From the IMG/VR virus record IMGVR_UViG_3300027792_000010: 64,000 bases of DNA; one strand, given 5' to 3'. The notes beneath the pieces were generated by a model. It was not told where the DNA came from, made no database searches, and worked only from the letters and a program-made list of their open reading frames with translations. Position 1 is the stretch's first letter; each line of letters opens with the position of its first letter. Positions 889 to 19,666 of the stretch are shown here, piece by piece. The translations under genes and the position numbers were made by a program. Origin of the DNA: a virus.

Positions 889-1377
889 TTACTTCTGTAT
901 TTTAACGAGTACTATGGGTTTGGTATTCTTTAGTCTTTTGCACCCTTTGAAGTCTTCTGTCTCTAAACATTTATCACACAAGGTTAGTAAATAGCCTGTA
1001 CCCTTATCTACTGCCCTACCCCCTGGATTACTGCAAGCCTCACAAACTGTGAGGGATCTGCTTTCATATTTTGAAACTAACTCAGTGATTTTATTTTTGT
1101 ATGATGGATTTTTTCCCTGCAGTGTTATATAGTACCTCAACCCAGCAAGCTTCTGCTTTATCTGCTCGACTCTTATTACCTTCTCTGTATCAATAGCCGA
1201 TAATTCTTCAGATAGCTTTTCTATTAGCCCCAACCAACCCTTCCAACATTCAATATGATAACTAGTAATAGGAGGGTCTTCGCTCCTACCAGGGGGAAGA
1301 AAAGTATACTCGAAGAGCGCAGGGTACTTGTTGAAGAGTTCTTTTTGTTTCTTTGCAGAAATACTATAGTTTTTCAT
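889..1377 (-). CDS. Conserved phage hypothetical protein (GW..LI / QIKQKLAGLRYY / CEAC motifs)
   Basis: 162-aa ORF resembling a common phage family with a KEKFGGLRFY-like motif and C-terminal Cys pairs. Confidence 0.6.
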   Translation of the reverse strand: MKNYSISAKKQKELFNKYPALFEYTFLPPGRSEDPPITSYHIECWKGWLGLIEKLSEELSAIDTEKVIRVEQIKQKLAGLRYYITLQGKNPSYKNKITELVSKYESRSLTVCEACSNPGGRAVDKGTGYLLTLCDKCLETEDFKGCKRLKNTKPIVLVKIQK

Positions 1378-3936: not shown

Positions 3937-4209
3937 ATAACTTTCCATCAAAAACTCATTAAACTTTCTCTCCTGCATAGTAAGCTTATCTTTTTTACTC
4001 CAGTTTGCTCTGCGGGGATTTTTACACATAATACAGGAGCAAAGTTTGGTGGTATCCCTTCTTATTTGAGCTTCCTTCTCTATGAAGTCTGCTCTTTCTT
4101 TTTCTGAGGTTAGCCACTTAGCAGTACTGCCGTAATAACCTAATGCACGTTTTTTCCCCAACTTCTTACCGATGAGGAAGCGTTCACGCTTATCTTTTGG
4201 ATGTGACAT
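3874..4209 (-). CDS. Basic hypothetical protein with CSCxMCxNPR motif
   Basis: 111-aa ORF with AAGGA SD; its last ~21 codons overlap the tRNA-like element. Confidence 0.65.
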   Translation of the reverse strand: MSHPKDKRERFLIGKKLGKKRALGYYGSTAKWLTSEKERADFIEKEAQIRRDTTKLCSCIMCKNPRRANWSKKDKLTMQERKFNEFLMESYAGIALEAKGPHSLGDKATRG

Positions 4210-4236
4210 AATGTATCCTTTCCTGTATTGCGCCCC

Positions 4237-4263
4237 TCACGAGCGCATGCTTATGGATTTCAT
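4237..4263 (-). CDS. Putative 8-aa leader peptide MKSISMRS
   Basis: Strong AAGGAGG SD; the TGA stop lies at the loop of a GC-rich hairpin; in frame with ORF 4209. Confidence 0.35.
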   Translation of the reverse strand: MKSISMRS

Positions 4264-4357
4264 TATGCCCTCCTTTAAAATAAGTTTAATTCGAACCTGG
4301 TAAAGAAGTTCGAAAGCATACCTCTAAAGTACAATTTTAAGTATAAATAAATTACTA

Positions 4358-4686: not shown

Positions 4687-4721
4687 GAAGTCTTTGTAAT
4701 GATATTATCATCCCCGTCAGG
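4673..4721 (-). promoter_or_regulatory. Antiterminator hairpin CCTGAC-GGGG : CCCC-T-GTCAGG, mutually exclusive with the terminator
   Basis: 10-bp pairing whose 3' strand is the terminator 5' strand and whose 5' strand contains the leader TGA; encloses an ATGAT-AAT-ATCAT hairpin. Confidence 0.75.
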
Positions 4722-4785
4722 TTGGCTTTAGCCTTCCTTCTCCTTCTCTACCCTCTATACCTATGGTAGCTGGGATGTAAAACAT
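4717..4785 (-). CDS. Putative attenuator leader peptide MFYIPATIGIEGREGEGRLKPT (22 aa)
   Basis: AAGGAAAG SD upstream of ATG; codons 8-18 are ATA GGT ATA GAG GGT AGA GAA GGA GAA GGA AGG. Confidence 0.75.
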   Translation of the reverse strand: MFYIPATIGIEGREGEGRLKPT

Positions 4786-4870
4786 GATACTTTCCTTTTT
4801 TATTTGGATAGGTTGCCCGATGGTACCATCCATTTACAATTTATTAACAAATATTATAACTTTCAATATT

Positions 4871-4899
4871 AATATACCATTTTGAGATATAAAGATCAA
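4871..4899 (-). promoter_or_regulatory. Sigma70-type promoter TTGATC-N17-TATATT with extended -10 TG, driving the leader and tRNA operon
   Basis: Exact 17-nt spacer; TGG precedes the -10 box. Confidence 0.7.
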
Positions 4900-4908
4900 T
4901 AAAAAGTT

Positions 4909-5310
4909 TTATGCTAAAGCACTTAGTCCTTTAGGTAACTTTTTCAGAGTATCTTTACGTACTTCTTCCGCTTGATCTATTAGTTTATTTCTATTTTGAC
5001 CAGCATTGAGTTTACTCAAGTAACGTACTAGGTCATGATATTCTGCATCTAACACGTCTTTAGTCTTTGCGGATTGTATATCTATTAATTTAGCTTCTAC
5101 ATCATTCTTTATTCTATTTTGATTAGTTCCTTCGGCTTGTAAGCTACCTATCATAGATAGAAGTGCTAAAGCCGCCCCGCCTATTACTTTCCCGAACATC
5201 CCTGCTTCAATACTATTTGCAGCAGCATCTAACATTTCAGCTTCTTTAATTAATCCCTTACTTTCAAGTGAGTTTGCGACTACATCTAAAATAGCAATTA
5301 CTTCTTTCAT
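4909..5310 (-). CDS. Hypothetical protein with LESKGLIKEA motif
   Basis: The N-terminal ~35-aa motif is shared with ORFs at 5873, 7140, 17279 and 21856. Confidence 0.65.
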   Translation of the reverse strand: MKEVIAILDVVANSLESKGLIKEAEMLDAAANSIEAGMFGKVIGGAALALLSMIGSLQAEGTNQNRIKNDVEAKLIDIQSAKTKDVLDAEYHDLVRYLSKLNAGQNRNKLIDQAEEVRKDTLKKLPKGLSALA

Positions 5311-5873
5311 GGCATATCTCCTGTTTTTAACTTTTCAAGGGTATATCTATAAAATAATTTTTCTATTGGTCCTGGTAATTTTTTATCTACTAATAAAAAA
5401 TTTACCATCATAGCAAAAGCCTCATGCGGTGTATTTTTCAAAGGTTTTTCTGCTTCTTCTACGATTTTTGGGGTTATTACATGACTAAAATAAGATCCGT
5501 TACCTAAATACCTATCAAGCCAGTGTCCAAGTTCGTGAGCTACAAAATCTTCTATAGTAGCTCCTATTTTTTTTAGACCTTCAAAGTCTATGTACAGGAC
5601 TCTGTTTTTTAAATCTATATACCCAGGTTCCCCTTTTGATTTAGTTTCATCATACTGTGGGTGTTGATTTGTTCTAAATTCATTTATACCTGGGAATATA
5701 TTAAATACTTTTTTAAAATCATTTATAACTTTTTTAGCTATGCTTTGATAATTAAGATACTCCATAGCATTAGCTGTAATATCTATACTATAGGCTTCTT
5801 TTATAAAACCTTTTTCTTCTATAGATGATGCTATACCATCTAATAGTATTGCTATTTTTTTATAATTTATCAT
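5307..5873 (-). CDS. Protein with KEA motif and zincin-like metallopeptidase motif
   Basis: HELGH (HExxH) plus downstream PHEAFA; N-terminal IEEKGFIKEA. Confidence 0.55.
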   Translation of the reverse strand: MINYKKIAILLDGIASSIEEKGFIKEAYSIDITANAMEYLNYQSIAKKVINDFKKVFNIFPGINEFRTNQHPQYDETKSKGEPGYIDLKNRVLYIDFEGLKKIGATIEDFVAHELGHWLDRYLGNGSYFSHVITPKIVEEAEKPLKNTPHEAFAMMVNFLLVDKKLPGPIEKLFYRYTLEKLKTGDMP

Positions 5874-5877
5874 CTAA

Positions 5878-7140
5878 TTACTTTTTTATCTCATCAAGTA
5901 TCTTTATAACTGTAGTAGGGTGTACATCAGGTATTTCGCCCACAAGAAAATCTTCTAAATCTTGATATTTGCTCATAATATTAGCGGGGAATGCTTCTTC
6001 CATATATGCAAAAGACTTTTCTTGCAATCCTGCTCCATCCTCTGTTTCCATCAATTTAGTATAATTATCCCACCACTTTTTATTAGATAATTTTAATAGA
6101 TTAAGCTCATTACTATCTAATCTATTAAGAAATTCTTTAAATTTAGCCACCTGTACAGGCGTTAGTTTTTTACCCATCCCTGCTGTTTTAGGGACAGATT
6201 TCCAACCTATAGGTTGCTGCTCAGGCATGAGTTTATTCAGATATTTATAAATTTCTGGAAATCTTTTGAAGAACTTATCCTCTGTAATAGATATTCCATC
6301 CCATCTTCTTTCAGAGCTGTTCCATTTCTTCATAAACCTGATACCATCAGGGCCCTCAAACCATTTTTTAAGCATATCTTGCTCTGCTGGACCAAGATTA
6401 GCCCAAAGCTTTATAGGCATCTTATACTGATTCAAAGGATTACCTAAAGAATCCTGATTACTCTTATTTACAACTACTTCTAAAGTATTAGATATAATAT
6501 CAAGTTTTTCGGCTTCTTTTATTAATCCTTTACCCTCAGCATAACTAGCTACTTTATCTAATATTTCTAATTTAACTGCTGTATCTATACTATTATTTGA
6601 TTCTTCTTTTTCTAAGGTATTAGAGATTATATCTAATACCTCGGCTTCTTTTATTAACCCTTTACCCTCTAATGAATCAGATACCTCATCTATCATTGAG
6701 GACATCTTTTTAAATACTATTCCAAATTCTTTTTCCATTTCTTTCCTACCTTTTTGTTCTGACCTTTCAGCCTCTTGTTCTAATTGTTTTCTTTTAGTTT
6801 CTATATCTTCAGGATTTATTTTCTCTAACTGTTTTACATGAGTAGCCTCATGCTCCATAACTATCTTCTGTATATTCCTTTTTATGAGTTCTTTAAGCTT
6901 TTGATTCTCTTCTGGATTTGTAGGATGTATCTTTCCAAAAGACTTTTTTATGTTTTCTGAGCAAAGGTGTATGGTATGTGCATCTGCTCCCGGTATTACG
7001 TACCCTGCTATATCACCCTTACAAGAACGTTCTATTTTTACTTTATAAACGTGCTTGGAGGCTAACTGCCCTATTATCTCATTAAGGGCTTCATTGGCTA
7101 TTTGATCATAACCTTCTATACGAACTGATTTTTTATTCAT
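5878..7140 (-). CDS. Protein with HExxH motif and two internal KEA-motif repeats
   Basis: MEHEATH; EGKGLIKEAE(V/K)LDIISNTLE occurs twice. Confidence 0.55.
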   Translation of the reverse strand: MNKKSVRIEGYDQIANEALNEIIGQLASKHVYKVKIERSCKGDIAGYVIPGADAHTIHLCSENIKKSFGKIHPTNPEENQKLKELIKRNIQKIVMEHEATHVKQLEKINPEDIETKRKQLEQEAERSEQKGRKEMEKEFGIVFKKMSSMIDEVSDSLEGKGLIKEAEVLDIISNTLEKEESNNSIDTAVKLEILDKVASYAEGKGLIKEAEKLDIISNTLEVVVNKSNQDSLGNPLNQYKMPIKLWANLGPAEQDMLKKWFEGPDGIRFMKKWNSSERRWDGISITEDKFFKRFPEIYKYLNKLMPEQQPIGWKSVPKTAGMGKKLTPVQVAKFKEFLNRLDSNELNLLKLSNKKWWDNYTKLMETEDGAGLQEKSFAYMEEAFPANIMSKYQDLEDFLVGEIPDVHPTTVIKILDEIKK

Positions 7141-9207: not shown

Positions 9208-11116
9208 TCAGAGCCTGCTCTTTCAGATTGTAGTACCCACGAGTCAGATACCAACAATTTAAACTCTCACGTAAATCGAACCCAAAAGCTCTGCGAGTCA
9301 CAGCGAGTACTGGAGGGGCTTGGATACGCTTAGCTACTGCCATGCCTTTAAACAGCTTATACCAGTGTTCTATATCATCTGTGAAAGCTTTTGCTGTAGG
9401 GAATAGCTTGTATACATCCATCCCTTCAGGAACTTTCAACTTATTATTGATTGTACCATTCAGATACCAGTTCAAATTGTCTTCTGGAGTCTTCCGATAC
9501 CAGGACTCTACCCAAGTGTAGAATAGTCTGCTGTGATACCAGTATACGAGAGGATCTCCCTTACCATCATCTACGCTCTGGTTATTCGACAGTTCTGCTG
9601 AAGCAACTACAGTGAAAGCCTCTTCAGGGATAACTGGATAAGTCTTGTTCAAATATTCTCCCAGTTCGTATACCATAGGCTTTCTAAGGTCACCAAGAGC
9701 TGCGAGGAATCCCGCTACATCCCCGTAAAGGGTGGCATAACCTACGGTACCCTCATCCTTATTCCCGTTATTCGTAAAAACACCACCCCAAGCGCTTGAA
9801 AGTGCCGAAAGGATTCGGCTCGAACGATCTCGGGCCTGTACATTCTCCATATGTGTAGGAGTGAGGTTCAGGGTTTTTTTCTCCCACAAAGAGTCACAGT
9901 CAGAATGATAAGGTATAACATAATCAGTATGCATCATTGTTATCTTTTTGAAACGTTTTAGCTCTAAACCATCAATCTGTTTTTTAGTTAGATTTACAGA
10001 ATCTTCTATAGGAATGCTGGTATAGTAGCATTCTATATTCTTTGCTAATTTTCTTGCTATGCTTATCGTAGTCTTTGAATTGTACTTCGAAGGCATGTTA
10101 ACCAGAAGAAGATTCTCCGGTCCTACCACCTGAGCATATAGCGAGGCTGCTACACATGAGTCTATTCCACCCGAGGCACCGATAACAACTCTCTTAGTCC
10201 CGCAGGCTTCCAGATATTTGCCTATGCCATACTTGAGAGCTTCTGCTACTTCGGCTATATCAGATTCGGGAAGGTTACACACCTCTCCAGGAAACATTTG
10301 CTTTGAATAAGTACACCACTCAACATACATCATATGCTCTTTGAACATAGGTGCTTGAGCAATGATTTTACCAGTCTCATCATACACTACCGAAGAACCA
10401 TCAAAAGTATAAATAGTTTTTCCATTATTCTGTATGCCTACAGCATTCACATATATGATAGGCATACCCAAGTATTTGGCATGTCTTTCACCAAATACCC
10501 TGTTTCTGCTGTTGTTTTTACCTATGGTATAAGGCGAACAGCTGATGTTTATCATCAAATCTGCTTCATTCTCTCTGTAGCATTCCATAGGGTTGATGGG
10601 ATAATCGTCATCCCACCCATCTTCACAGATAGTAAGGCCAACTTTGGTGTCCTTGATATTTTGTGGGGTAAAGTATTTCCTTGTTTTAATATCCGACACT
10701 TTAACCTCATATCCTAAAGCAGGTCTGAAATGACGAGGTTCTTCAAACTCTCGATAGTTAGGGAGAAGGGTCTTTATGTAGTATCGAACTGTCCTGTTTG
10801 TTGCACATATTAAAACATTACGTATGATAGATCTTCCATCTGTGTGCTTGATACCCCAATCTACATCTATACTCCCAAAGATGATTGTAATATCATCCGA
10901 AAGAGCTATTACATCATTGTTGTAATCCATACAGTCTTTGAGGAAAGATTCTTCTTCCCACATATCTCCAAGGAGATATCCAGGTATCATTAGTTCTGGG
11001 AATACTACAATATCTGCGTGATTGGCTTTAGCCGTCGATACATACTCCATGACTTTTTTGAAGTTTTTGGAGGGATCTGCAGGGATAATTTCTACTTGTG
11101 CTAATGCTATTTTCAT
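9194..11116 (-). CDS. nadE: Glutamine-dependent NAD+ synthetase
   Basis: N-terminal nitrilase domain (VVFPEL, YIKTLLP, LTICED) plus synthetase domain (SGGIDS, ENVQAR, GYATLYGD, SAEL, KRIQAPP). Confidence 0.95.
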   Translation of the reverse strand: MKIALAQVEIIPADPSKNFKKVMEYVSTAKANHADIVVFPELMIPGYLLGDMWEEESFLKDCMDYNNDVIALSDDITIIFGSIDVDWGIKHTDGRSIIRNVLICATNRTVRYYIKTLLPNYREFEEPRHFRPALGYEVKVSDIKTRKYFTPQNIKDTKVGLTICEDGWDDDYPINPMECYRENEADLMINISCSPYTIGKNNSRNRVFGERHAKYLGMPIIYVNAVGIQNNGKTIYTFDGSSVVYDETGKIIAQAPMFKEHMMYVEWCTYSKQMFPGEVCNLPESDIAEVAEALKYGIGKYLEACGTKRVVIGASGGIDSCVAASLYAQVVGPENLLLVNMPSKYNSKTTISIARKLAKNIECYYTSIPIEDSVNLTKKQIDGLELKRFKKITMMHTDYVIPYHSDCDSLWEKKTLNLTPTHMENVQARDRSSRILSALSSAWGGVFTNNGNKDEGTVGYATLYGDVAGFLAALGDLRKPMVYELGEYLNKTYPVIPEEAFTVVASAELSNNQSVDDGKGDPLVYWYHSRLFYTWVESWYRKTPEDNLNWYLNGTINNKLKVPEGMDVYKLFPTAKAFTDDIEHWYKLFKGMAVAKRIQAPPVLAVTRRAFGFDLRESLNCWYLTRGYYNLKEQALNGKL

Positions 11117-16534: not shown

Positions 16535-17179
16535 TTGATTTCAGCAGCTATGAATACCCCTACCTTTATTAATAAAGTTCTAATACAATCTCCATCTAAA
16601 AATAACAGTATAAAAAAGAAGGCCCAGGTAGGGCCTTCTCCTACTTCTTTATTGAGGGATGGTACTATGTCATTTGAAAAAGCTTTAGAATTTGTACTTC
16701 GCTGGGAAGGCGGCTATGTAAATCACCCCTCAGATCCTGGTGGTGAAACTAATAAAGGAATTATAAAAAAAGAGTATAATAAGTATAGGTCAGAGAAATC
16801 TTTACCTTTACGCTCTGTTAAAGGGATAGAGGATTCAGAAGTAAAAGATATTTATGAAAATAAATATTGGAAAGTTGGGCACTGTGATGTAATGGGCGAT
16901 AAACTATCTATAGTTCATTTTGACTCTGTTGTTAATACAGGAATCACCCAAGGGGCTAAATTCCTACAACGTTGTTTGAAGGTTAAGGATGATGGAGTTG
17001 TAGGCCCTGAAACGATTAAGGCTTTGACAGTCTCTAACCAGGATTCTTTGGTATCCGAATATATAGGACAAAGAAAAGCTTTCTATCATAAAATTATTAA
17101 GGTGAATCCTAAATTACAGGTATTTCTTAAGGGCTGGTTAAGGAGAATAGATGCTTTAGAAAAAATAGTATCAGAATGA
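16535..17179 (+). CDS. Glycoside hydrolase family 108 lysozyme with C-terminal peptidoglycan-binding domain (start may be ATG 16667)
   Basis: EGGYVNHPSDPGGETNKGI, DGVVGPET, FLKGWLRRI. Confidence 0.88.
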   Translation: MISAAMNTPTFINKVLIQSPSKNNSIKKKAQVGPSPTSLLRDGTMSFEKALEFVLRWEGGYVNHPSDPGGETNKGIIKKEYNKYRSEKSLPLRSVKGIEDSEVKDIYENKYWKVGHCDVMGDKLSIVHFDSVVNTGITQGAKFLQRCLKVKDDGVVGPETIKALTVSNQDSLVSEYIGQRKAFYHKIIKVNPKLQVFLKGWLRRIDALEKIVSE

Positions 17180-17830: not shown

Positions 17831-17901
17831 TACTAGTGTCAAAGAGCCTCTGTCTTAATTTCTTCGCGCTCGCCTAAATACTCTCAAGCGGGGCGAATTT
17901 C

Positions 17902-18039
17902 TTACAACGTTCACTGCACAGCCGATAGTTGCCGCAAATCCTGGATAAGAAACACAACTTGCCGACTATCCAAACCGTTACTTTTAGCAGCCTCAAGTTG
18001 CTTTGCAAGAGCGGCAATTTTGGCTTGCAATTGTTGTAG
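17902..18039 (-). repeat. attC-like site (CTACAAC ... GTTGTAA)
   Basis: Stem ATTGCA-AGCC..TTGCCGC / GCGGCAA..GGCT-G-TGCAGT. Confidence 0.6.
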
Positions 18040-18138
18040 GCTGTTTAAAACAGGCTCAACATCAGCCACGTAATAAAACAACCCCTCACTTGTTTGGTAA
18101 GGACATCCGTTATGAAAATCAATTTTTTTTAAAGACAT
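17911..18138 (-). CDS. Cassette-encoded hypothetical protein reading through its attC-like site
   Basis: GGAG SD just after the core site; stop codon 3 nt before the next GTT core. Confidence 0.55.
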   Translation of the reverse strand: MSLKKIDFHNGCPYQTSEGLFYYVADVEPVLNSLQQLQAKIAALAKQLEAAKSNGLDSRQVVFLIQDLRQLSAVQ

Positions 18139-18162
18139 ATAATAACTCCAATTCTAAGTTGA

Positions 18163-18302
18163 ATACAACGGTTGATGTCTGTATGCTGTGCGGGGCCGAC
18201 GGTAGGGCGCTATACCTACACCTCCGGGTGTCCACTGTTTACCAACGGCGACCACTTATACAGTCTTCGCAGGCCCCACATAGCATACTGCATTTGTTAG
18301 GC
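18163..18302 (-). repeat. attC-like site (GCCTAAC ... GTTGTAT)
   Basis: Long stem GTATGCT-A-TGTGGGGCC / GGCCCCGCAC-AGCATAC. Confidence 0.7.
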
Positions 18303-18461
18303 GATTTAAGAAGTTGCCTCCGCAGTGTAAAGCGCATTGCCGCTTACTCAAGGCGACTGGACGTTTCGTTGCAAGCTTGCGACCTGTAACACGGTGTCTT
18401 ACTTCCGGTATGTAGAGTAATGCGCCTATAACCATAAAAGCAACCTCTTATTTCGCCCAAC
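18296..18461 (-). ncRNA. Structured 166-bp cassette B (possible ncRNA)
   Basis: Nested stems AAGAGGTTGC/GCAACTTCTT and GCGCATT/AATGCGC; same layout as 19431-19596. Confidence 0.45.
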
Positions 18462-18542
18462 GTTTGCCGCACAGATGCAGTGCGGTACGCCCAGGTTATG
18501 ATTTAACCGCATTGCACTCTTGCGGCTGTTGTTTGTCTGTGC
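18455..18542 (-). repeat. attC-like site (degenerate GCACAGAC ... GTTGGGC)
   Basis: Stem GCCGCA..TGCA.TGCGGT / ACCGCA.TGCA..TGCGGC. Confidence 0.6.
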
Positions 18543-18753
18543 TGGCCGTTTCCGCATTCTCCTGCGGCGCGTCTTCGATTTCTTCGACTTTTGTTTTAAT
18601 TGGGAACCAAAGGCGCCCCCCACCAAGGCCATCTTTTTCAAGCATTCTGCACACTGCTTCTGCTTGCTTTTTTGTTTCGTGAGTATCAGTTGTTTGGTTA
18701 TCACAAAAGCCGTGCATCGACTCCCATAGTGCTATTGACATATATCTTTTCAT
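18496..18753 (-). CDS. Cassette-encoded hypothetical protein
   Basis: AGGAG SD; stop codon lies inside the attC-like hairpin. Confidence 0.55.
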   Translation of the reverse strand: MKRYMSIALWESMHGFCDNQTTDTHETKKQAEAVCRMLEKDGLGGGRLWFPIKTKVEEIEDAPQENAETASTDKQQPQECNAVKS

Positions 18754-18806
18754 TCTTTTCTCCTGTTTTCGCGCTGCCTTTCAAATCAAAGAAAATTTCT
18801 AATTGC

Positions 18807-18941
18807 ACACAACGTCCGACAAACGTGTGAAGTGCTCATATCGCACCAAGCATAGATTGAAACTCTTCCTCGCACTTGCTGCAACGCACATTTACAACAT
18901 CAACGCCACACTGTGAGCATTTTACACTTTGTTTGTTGGTT
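18807..18941 (-). repeat. attC-like site (AACCAAC ... GTTGTGT)
   Basis: Inverse core CAACCAAC is the exact complement of this cassette's opening GTTGGTTG; stems GTGT/ACAC and TGCTCA/TGAGCA. Confidence 0.7.
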
Positions 18942-19057
18942 GTCTGTTGAGCGAGTTCCACAATTTTTTTTATGCGCTGTAACGCTTCGCGATGATGTGA
19001 CCAAGTGCCGCTATCGTTTGCAATTTTATCTAAAACTTCCAAATCTGCACTTAGCAT
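18836..19057 (-). CDS. Cassette-encoded hypothetical protein with C-terminal CxxC pairs encoded by the attC-like site
   Basis: GGAGG SD; CSQC and CSKC are translated from the hairpin region. Confidence 0.55.
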   Translation of the reverse strand: MLSADLEVLDKIANDSGTWSHHREALQRIKKIVELAQQTTNKQSVKCSQCGVDVVNVRCSKCEEEFQSMLGAI

Positions 19058-19089
19058 AAAACCTCCAATAAAATTAAGAGCGAAATTGC

Positions 19090-19152
19090 AACCAACGTTC
19101 TCGCAAATGTACGGTCGTTTTAATGCCGTACTTTGCGTGTTGGCTGTTGTTT
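19090..19152 (-). repeat. attC-like site (AAACAAC ... GTTGGTT)
   Basis: Stem CGCAAA-GTACGG / CCGTAC-A-TTTGCG with a single bulge. Confidence 0.65.
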
Positions 19153-19330
19153 ACTTGCGCTCCTTAGCTATCTGAGGTTTTGCGGCCTCCGATAGCACGA
19201 TACACCTTGCAACTCGCAGACCTTCCAAAACACCATCAAGATATGCAGAAGCATGATCGTACATTTTTACCACGTCTGGGCACTCTCCACTAAGCTCCGC
19301 AAGAACAGCTTCCCTTTCGATTAACACCAT
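19151..19330 (-). CDS. Cassette-encoded hypothetical protein (59 aa, MVLIEREAVLAELSGECP...)
   Basis: Read by hand; AGGAGG SD; TAA stop abuts the inverse core. Confidence 0.55.
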   Translation of the reverse strand: MVLIEREAVLAELSGECPDVVKMYDHASAYLDGVLEGLRVARCIVLSEAAKPQIAKERK

Positions 19331-19367
19331 AGCAAAACCTCCTATAATATAGCCGCAAGTAAATTGA

Positions 19368-19437
19368 CTACAACGTTTGACACATTATGAAGTTGCGCTT
19401 CGCAATTTACGAAGTGAACATAATGCGTTTGTTGTGC
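19368..19437 (-). repeat. attC-like site (GCACAAC ... GTTGTAG)
   Basis: Inverse core is the exact complement of the opening GTTGTGC; stem CATTATG/CATAATG; the inner stem pairs better on the + (bottom) strand through a G-T pair. Confidence 0.7.
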
Positions 19438-19596
19438 GATTTAAAAGGTTGCCTCCATACTGTTACTGTGTGCGCCCTGCGGTTTTCGATGTCTAACGGT
19501 ATGATATACATCCGCCACAATTGCGCCCCAGCATTATCCTATTCACGGTAAACGCACACCTCAAATACAAGAAAGCAACCTTTTATTTTGCACAAC
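19431..19596 (-). ncRNA. Structured 166-bp cassette A, no ORF identified (possible ncRNA)
   Basis: Nested stems AAAAGGTTGC/GCAACCTTTT and GTGTGCG/CGCACAC. Confidence 0.45.
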
Positions 19597-19666
19597 GTCT
19601 ATTATACGACAGTACCTTGTGTAACTCATTGATTTTCTTTTAGATAAAATTTTTGAAATTTCACTA

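Follow-up and report, generated by a model that had tools for sequence, protein, structure and literature searches.

Two Gene-less Cassettes with a Shared Nested-stem Frame in a Putative Phage-borne Integron-like Array

Two short elements, A (18296-18461) and B (19431-19596), occur in the 64,000-nucleotide (nt) stretch of viral DNA analyzed here (IMG/VR record IMGVR_UViG_3300027792_000010; hereafter the window), and their sequences indicate that they are two diverged copies of one gene-less cassette family in a phage-borne integron-like array. At a rough probability of one half, we regard both as cargo-less cassettes, whose nested stems would represent the outer half, split by integration, of a longer recombination hairpin working on single-stranded DNA (ssDNA). 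An initial annotation of the window had described the two as mobile cassettes that keep a nested-stem architecture while their sequences diverge, and had proposed a functional RNA or an ssDNA fold. The mobility and the conservation of structure are supported by our results, and the ssDNA alternative gained ground, as the shared frame is collinear with an attC-type hairpin in the circular cassette and is no evidence in itself for a dedicated RNA gene. The stem plan is not special to these two elements: most cassettes in arrays of this class, among them clearly coding ones, are enclosed by the same frame.

Structure of Elements A and B

Direct reading confirmed that both elements are exactly 166 nt long from core to inverse core. 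They open with GTT(A/G)(G/T)GC and close with GC(C/A)CAAC, and about 35 nt are common to A and B at each end, while the centres are unalignable; a repeat finder reported similarities of 45 nt at 80% identity and 27 nt at 89% identity. The shared termini pointed out initially are indeed specific, as GCGATTTAARARGTTGCCTCC and AAAGCAACCTYTTATTTYGC are each found in A and B alone within the 64 kb, with 0.00 and 0.05 occurrences expected, respectively.

Both elements follow one fold plan, which consists of a 9-bp outer (R) helix, a 2-nt bubble, an 11-bp X helix, a two-sided segment of 14-15 nt, a 7-bp C helix and an interior of about 78 nt (Table 1). The folds were recovered by ViennaRNA, in agreement with the nested stems, the symmetric 14/14- or 15/15-nt segments and the 7-bp stems (GCGCATT/AATGCGC in A, GTGTGCG/CGCACAC in B) of the initial annotation. 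The z-scores of the DNA folds were weak for A (-1.8 and -2.1) and reached -3.7 on either strand for B, and those of the RNA folds of A and B ranged from -3.5 to -5.5.

A Family of Relatives with Covarying Helices

Relatives were collected by pattern scans followed by filtering, in which the gapped pattern was loose and most of the roughly 240 loci were chance matches; 11 metagenome loci and one contig of a metagenome-assembled genome (MAG) were kept, and the remaining loci served as negative controls. The resulting A/B family comprises 16 distinct members of 153-166 nt on 13 viral or metagenome contigs (individual loci are given here as L numbers), so that homologs with conserved pairing do exist. 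An exact scan of viral contigs for the array entry sequence gave no match. On the sense strand, the conserved 5' end of the family reads GAAATAAGAGGTTGCTTTTATGGTTATAGGCG and the conserved 3' end CGCTTTACACTATGGAGGCAACCTCTTAAATC, and the centres show no mutual similarity save between near-identical lineages. Several arrays hold two copies (the window, L026, L159 and L061), and one member of L159 is located at the array edge.

All three helices covary across 13-16 relatives, which substantiates the initial claim of structure kept under sequence change. In a 13-sequence alignment, 91.7% of the helix cells were paired, compared with 32-47% when the partner was slid, and changes on both sides were observed at 10 helix pairs, a number that none of 500 shuffles reached. 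Six of the seven C-helix pairs covary, and a compensatory change from C-G to T-A distinguishes L061 from L093. In three members (L026b, L159b and L247), the X helix has been swapped for an unrelated yet complementary sequence with the flanking segments kept. The centres carry no extra structure relative to shuffles (mean z about -0.1; A, +1.8). Strong as the helix covariation is, DNA hairpins covary alike, and it is thus neutral between an RNA and a DNA fold.

An origin as a miniature inverted-repeat transposable element or transposon-derived palindrome does not fit: the copies all lie within cassette arrays, exactly between R' and R'' cores, and neither a direct duplication nor a further copy in the window was found.

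Elements A and B as Cassettes of an Integron-like Array

The array is richer in GC (45%) than its flanks (about 35%), and six plus-strand CAAC|GTY junctions are concentrated in 17860-19596. Hairpins of 56-142 nt bounded by YAAC...GTTR lie between its small open reading frames (ORFs). Those at 17901-18039, 18163-18302, 18455-18534, 19090-19145 and 19368-19437 are of attC type, with YAAC/GTTR cores that fit RYYYAAC...GTTRRRY, and a further site near 18807-18945 folds poorly. Although these hairpins have asymmetric spacers and bulges, the orientation of the array is not assignable from them; it was taken from the direction of the ORFs and from which hairpin travels with the A/B family.

Each element starts with the R' core left by the site before it and ends with the R'' core of the hairpin that belongs to it, and A and B are therefore the cargo of ORF-less cassettes, in line with the mobile cassettes initially proposed. 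With the crossover placed at G|TT, the cassette start matches its own R'' core at 7/7 positions in B (GTTGTGC/GCACAAC) and at 6/7 plus a G-T pair in A (GTTGGGC/GCCTAAC), and the sequences of relatives part ways directly after AAC. In addition, the hairpin type of cassette B also trails family members in L026, L093, L159 and L240, and homologs of the cassette-A hairpin occur in L001 (9460-9603) and L086.

Table 1. Features of the cassette array and of elements A and B (window positions)
Feature	Position	Strand	Remarks
Integron-like array, six cassettes	17860..19596	-	GC-richer island in phage-like contig
Small array ORFs	17911-18138, 18496-18753, 18836-19057, 19151-19330	-	
Entry region 5' of array	19597..19660	-	Perfect TATAAT 19606-19601, 4 nt ahead of first cassette core
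First cassette, ORF-less, cargo B	19595 down to 19374	-	222 nt
attC-like hairpin of cassette B	19368..19437	-	70 nt; sense R'' GCACAAC, R' GTTGTAG
Fifth cassette, ORF-less, cargo A	18460 down to 18169	-	292 nt
attC-like hairpin of cassette A	18163..18302	-	140 nt
attC-like hairpin of cassette preceding A	18455..18534	-	R' core (18461-18455, sense) is the first 7 nt of A
A outer (R) helix	18296-18304 with 18453-18461	+	Followed by TT/TT bubble
A X helix	18307-18317 with 18440-18450	sense = -	5' arm TAAGAGGTTGC; one A-C on +, G-T on -
A segment between X and C			14/14 nt
A C helix	18332-18338 (GCGCATT) with 18419-18425 (AATGCGC)	sense = -	5' arm 18419-18425 (GCGCATT)
B outer (R) helix	19431-19439 with 19588-19596	+	Followed by bubble
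B X helix	19442-19452 with 19575-19585	sense = -	5' arm 19575-19585 TAAAAGGTTGC
B segment between X and C			15/15 nt
B C helix	19468-19474 (GTGTGCG) with 19553-19559 (CGCACAC)	sense = -	5' arm 19553-19559 (GTGTGCG)

Two features of the hairpins themselves were also observed. One attC-like hairpin type recurs at 19368-19437 of the window, at 3985-4050 of L159 and at about 9280-9345 and 8985-9045 of L240; its loop (GAAGTTGCG...CAATTT) is kept while the L-box stems differ and covary, the inverse of the usual conserved boxes and variable loop. The hairpins at 17901-18039 and 18455-18534 overlap the 3' ends of the ORFs at 17911-18138 and 18496-18753, so that the recombination site is partly translated.

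A Frame Common to the Array Class

The outer architecture was sought in other cassettes with a scan for GTT plus 4 nt, a 4-nt spacer and a helix of at least 9 bp, followed by the mirror image closed by AAC. This frame was matched 41 times in 131 kb of array-bearing loci, nearly always perfectly and with 4/4 spacers, and 21 times, mostly imperfectly, in 1.47 Mb of unrelated loci. A third (C) helix of at least 6 bp, lying 12-17 nt (5') and 11-16 nt (3') inside X, is present in 27 of 33 modules, including cassettes with ORFs of 41-90 aa led by a Shine-Dalgarno (SD) sequence. The second cassette of the window (19373-19139) has the complete frame. No such frame was found in 13.5 kb of classical Vibrio integron cassettes (phage Va_90-11-286_p16).

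When the A and B cassettes are circularly permuted, frame and attC hairpin form one continuous rod, C-X-R-L-loop, in the computed fold, and the array as a linear single strand is computed to fold into a chain of adjacent hairpins. For the cassettes outside the A/B family, the stability excess over shuffles is greater on the bottom strand in 14 of 17 cases, and the bottom strand is the one recombined in integrons. As the frame is collinear with the attC hairpin in the circle, it appears to be mainly a feature of the cassette and recombination system. RNA-level selection of the generic frame was considered and rejected: raw stability is greater for sense than for antisense in 30 of 33 modules, and this difference is largely gone after composition correction, except in the A/B family.

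Nearly every cassette in the window array and related loci, read in the sense direction, starts with GTTG-N4-(A/C)AAT and ends with AC(A/T/G)(T/G)-N4-AAC, and the resulting 2-nt mismatch bubble, at a distance of 10-11 nt from the crossover, is conserved also where the X helix is lacking. In coding cassettes, the C helix often covers the ribosome-binding site (RBS) or start codon on one arm and the stop-codon region on the other. This inner helix joins the RBS or start codon to the final codons of the small gene itself, as in the pairing of GAGGTTTTGC with GCAAAACCTC, and was seen in the window at 19139-19373 and in coding cassettes of L064, L159, L001 and L005. Fold-back control of translation is a possible consequence of such a junction between the two gene ends.

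A Proposed Extended Recombination Hairpin

The following mechanism is proposed for these cassettes. The folded site would run past the R core through a 2-nt bubble, an X helix of 10-11 bp, a two-sided segment of about 14 nt and a C helix of 6-10 bp. The crossover would take place at the GTT of the R core, and integration would therefore split the rod, each end of the cargo keeping one arm of X and one of C. Where the cargo amounts to only about 80 nt of arbitrary sequence, the arms would close into the 166-nt hairpin seen in A and B, and in the excised single-stranded circle the whole cassette would form one rod, C-X-R-L-loop. The frame would thus act on ssDNA in excision and integration, and the A/B family may persist as minimal, highly mobile or cis-acting cassettes. 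In addition, the sense-strand pairing of the family, described in the next section, might fold the transcript as a cis-acting hairpin, with which, in the case of B, the array transcript would begin.

A bolder version, which we hold tentatively and consider rather doubtful, takes the site to be about twice the size of a classical attC. It would be a four-helix rod, C-X-R-L, with the crossover in mid-rod and every cassette, coding or not, framed by a hairpin; A and B would be the minimal unit, a rod with two loops, which acquired a sense-strand RNA fold that punctuates the transcript.

Several observations weigh against the reading of A and B as cargo-less cassettes whose stems serve recombination. 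A phmmer search of the window with four recombinase queries, which is a weak test, gave no tyrosine-recombinase-like ORF, and two related viral records (L001 and L240) gave no PF00589 match, so that recombination is itself something we infer. The negative control for the frame consists of one classical integron. The rod computed for the circle is partly built in by the inverted ends. Moreover, the segments of about 14 nt are more conserved than a purely structural spacer should be and are G-U paired in the sense direction, and the composition-corrected stability excess is greater on the sense strand in all 16 family members, compared with 3 of the 17 other cassettes. This sense-strand bias points to an added RNA-level or sequence-specific role beyond a DNA-only account. 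Finally, 9 of 15 members have no stop in the frame opened by a conserved SD and ATG, compared with about 4 expected.

Sense-strand Pairing of the A/B Family

The "internal loops" of the family, that is, the two segments of 14-15 nt, are its best-conserved part. They pair on the sense strand through U-G, U-A and G-U, with 92.6% of the cells paired compared with 47-56% when slid, and nine pairs within them are 96.5% paired; one-sided changes there swap U-G and U-A, and two pairs change on both sides. The sense RNA of A and B is 8-9 kcal/mol more stable than the antisense RNA. As this pairing is available on the sense strand only, it leaves room for a role at the RNA level, and it hints that the transcript, in the modeled fold, also forms a structure, perhaps a leader or processing hairpin. 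A transcript from the TATAAT of the entry region (19606-19601), which the consensus promoter scan missed because of its weak -35, would likely start at the base of the B hairpin.

These observations are also the basis for the view of A and B as a dedicated cis-acting RNA, in which a near-continuous sense hairpin of about 45 bp (R, X, a G-U-rich helix and C) with a loop of about 75 nt would act as a 5' stabilizer in the case of B, as a site for RNase III or other processing, or, in the case of A, as an insulator within the array transcript. Sense-only pairing, the greater stability of the sense RNA and its excess in every family member all fit such an element, as do the likely start at the first base of B and the commonness of two copies per array, as for a punctuation element. 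The strength of the strand bias is limited by descent, however: the 16 members derive from one ancestral end sequence, which makes the bias close to a single observation. Even so, it is unlikely to be accidental, with a roughly estimated chance of about 1 in 1000. In the R and X helices, mismatches show no tilt to sense G-U (9 vs. 18), G-T pairs are equally usable by top-strand DNA, and no Rfam family was matched. Taken together, we judge a dedicated cis-acting RNA to be unlikely, though a serious contender.

Possible Promoter Activity

Gene-less cassettes may also act as promoters. Most of 29 gene-less cassettes from Vibrio superintegrons had promoter activity in the sense direction, and promoters there were not callable in silico (Blanco et al., 2024; PMC11014356); promoter activity has likewise been demonstrated for ORF-less cassettes (Tansirichaiya et al., 2019; PMC6557892). 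By analogy, A and B, each of which lies upstream of coding cassettes, might drive these from a candidate -35 (TTGTGC) in the R' core, separated by an 18-nt spacer formed by the X arm from a -10 (TATGGT) in the conserved 5' segment. TATGGT is present in 12 of the 16 members at a fixed spacing from TTG. The two hexamers nevertheless agree with the consensus at only 7 of 12 positions, B has CTTGTA in place of the -10, and a combined sigma-70 and terminator scan listed no site on the sense strand of A or B. A promoter would, in addition, leave the equally conserved 3' segment and the C helix unexplained, and we consider this function improbable.

Coding Potential

A and B do not look coding in their sequences. 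The codon model scored A at -0.05 and B at -0.15, although it found the right frame in 16/16 real cassette ORFs, and the 59-aa open frame of A has no homolog among 5.8 billion protein clusters. The ATG-led frame noted there for B is a plus-strand ORF of 54 aa (19387-19551), which begins within the adjoining attC and runs antisense to the array.

A micro-protein cassette would nonetheless have some footing in the family, in which a conserved AAGAGG-N8-ATG could start a peptide of 41-59 aa (MV(I/V)G...) that is hypervariable past its first residues; decay would then have affected B and part of the relatives. All four X-helix variants keep the purine-rich SD-like motif, and 12 of 16 members the ATG; the ATG frame contains 8 stops, compared with 13-28 in the other five frames, on top of the excess of stop-free members given above, and coding mini-cassettes of similar size (41-44 aa) do occur in these arrays. 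Yet the frame is the codon model's best in just 7 of 15 members, with 5 expected by chance, and the peptides have nothing in common past the first 4-5 residues. Across members, three different frames run through the conserved 3' end, L061 carries a stop codon where its close relative L093 has Trp, and B has no ATG at the family start position and has stops in that frame. As SD and ATG both lie within helices of the predicted fold as well, a micro-protein is the reading to which we give least credence.

Candidate Small RNAs and tRNA-like Cargo

No tRNA was detected in A or B by ARAGORN, and Rfam 15 returned nothing in either element even at E values up to 10, so that the family assignment envisaged in the initial annotation did not materialize; on the whole window (gathering score) and the array (E up to 10), Rfam gave distant tRNAs and noise only. 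One relative differs. The centre of the member at 979-1140 of L026 is a tRNA-like gene in sense orientation (1012-1107, minus strand; 96 nt, with a long insert in the anticodon arm), which scored 36.4 bits against the Rfam tRNA cut-off of 29, has perfect T and D arms and was called tRNA-Lys (CTT) by ARAGORN. Its acceptor stem doubles as the inner helix of the frame.

Such a centre would suit a carrier of trans-acting small RNAs, with the stem as processing platform and the centre as product, whether tRNA-like, decoy or antisense RNA. The C helix, being 7 bp long and usually beginning with GCG, resembles an acceptor stem, the centres fall into a narrow length range (65-78 nt inside C), and L095 contains a T-arm-like GATGGTTCGACTCCATC. 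However, L026 provides the only one of 16 centres that matches any RNA family, and the lack of excess structure in the centres, noted above, speaks against this reading. The generic frame suits any cargo with pairing ends, tRNA included, and the tRNA in L026 may therefore be ordinary cargo. A small-RNA carrier accordingly strikes us as very improbable.

Two other identities were dropped. A second attC of opposite polarity does not fit, as the X helix and the AAC are at opposite ends of the core, which gives the R core the wrong polarity; a group II intron end or IS110 bridge RNA has the wrong size and context, no enzyme is adjacent, and the loops are conserved rather than programmable.

Surroundings of the Array

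In its gene content the window resembles a segment of a large phage, with genes for ribonucleotide reductase, a GH108 lysozyme and a DnaJ-like protein together with tRNAs. Megablast and blastn of the array region against 50,697 phage records gave no match, and thus no close relative was found among deposited phages. The top tblastn match of the neighboring ribonucleotide reductase, at 46% identity, was to actinophages and is uninformative on the host.

The left edge of the array (17875-17925) resembles 16936-16973, in the peptidoglycan-binding part of the adjoining GH108 lysozyme gene, with 19 of 22 bases identical around TACAACGTT and translations of SGANFLQRSL and QGAKFLQRCL. One possible origin is recombination between the end of the array and an AAC|GTT secondary site of a lysozyme paralog. 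The L159 contig (of note at 4202-4302 and 4711-5919), although binned as a Thermoplasmatales MAG, looks phage-like; it has an array of the same type, a masked stretch adjoins its first cassette, and an adenylosuccinate-synthetase-like gene, possibly of PurZ type, lies beside the array.

Comparison with Known Systems and Implications

In the usual description, an integron cassette consists of one gene and its attC site, and the classical attC ends at its R''/R' cores. Unlike in classical attC, pairing here extends outward through two more helices at fixed distances, with the consequence that the cargo of each cassette is bracketed by inverted repeats. The hypervariable loop closed by conserved or covarying helices, with sequence free and pairing kept, recalls the variable terminal structure of attC, whereas in A and B the variable part occupies the rod end away from the attC loop, in the place of the gene of other cassettes.

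attC sites and integrase-less arrays (clusters of attC sites lacking integron integrases, CALINs) have been reported in phages (Qi et al., 2023; PMC9892861), and the present array resembles them in its small co-oriented genes, its imperfect palindromes with RYYYAAC/GTTRRRY-type cores, its location within a phage and the lack of an integrase beside it. Known gene-less integron cassettes (PMC11014356, PMC6557892) are, like A and B, short, without an identifiable gene, bounded by attC-type sites and placed among coding cassettes, sometimes first. Promoter activity is what defines the known ones, for which no common fold has been described, whereas A and B form a near-complete hairpin whose centre is hypervariable and whose ends are conserved in 16 members. 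Neither phage attC arrays nor gene-less cassettes are new as such, while the fixed multi-helix frame and the widespread scaffold-only family appear, within the searches made, to be so.

In this class of phage array, nearly every cassette is bracketed by two further helices at fixed distances, and some cassettes consist of the scaffold only. Should the scaffold belong to the recombination substrate, the recombinases of phage cassette arrays would act on a longer site of a distinct kind, and the persistence and multiplication of gene-less cassettes would be accounted for. If the sense-strand fold matters, the A/B family would represent a portable, context-independent RNA punctuation element for shuffled operons.

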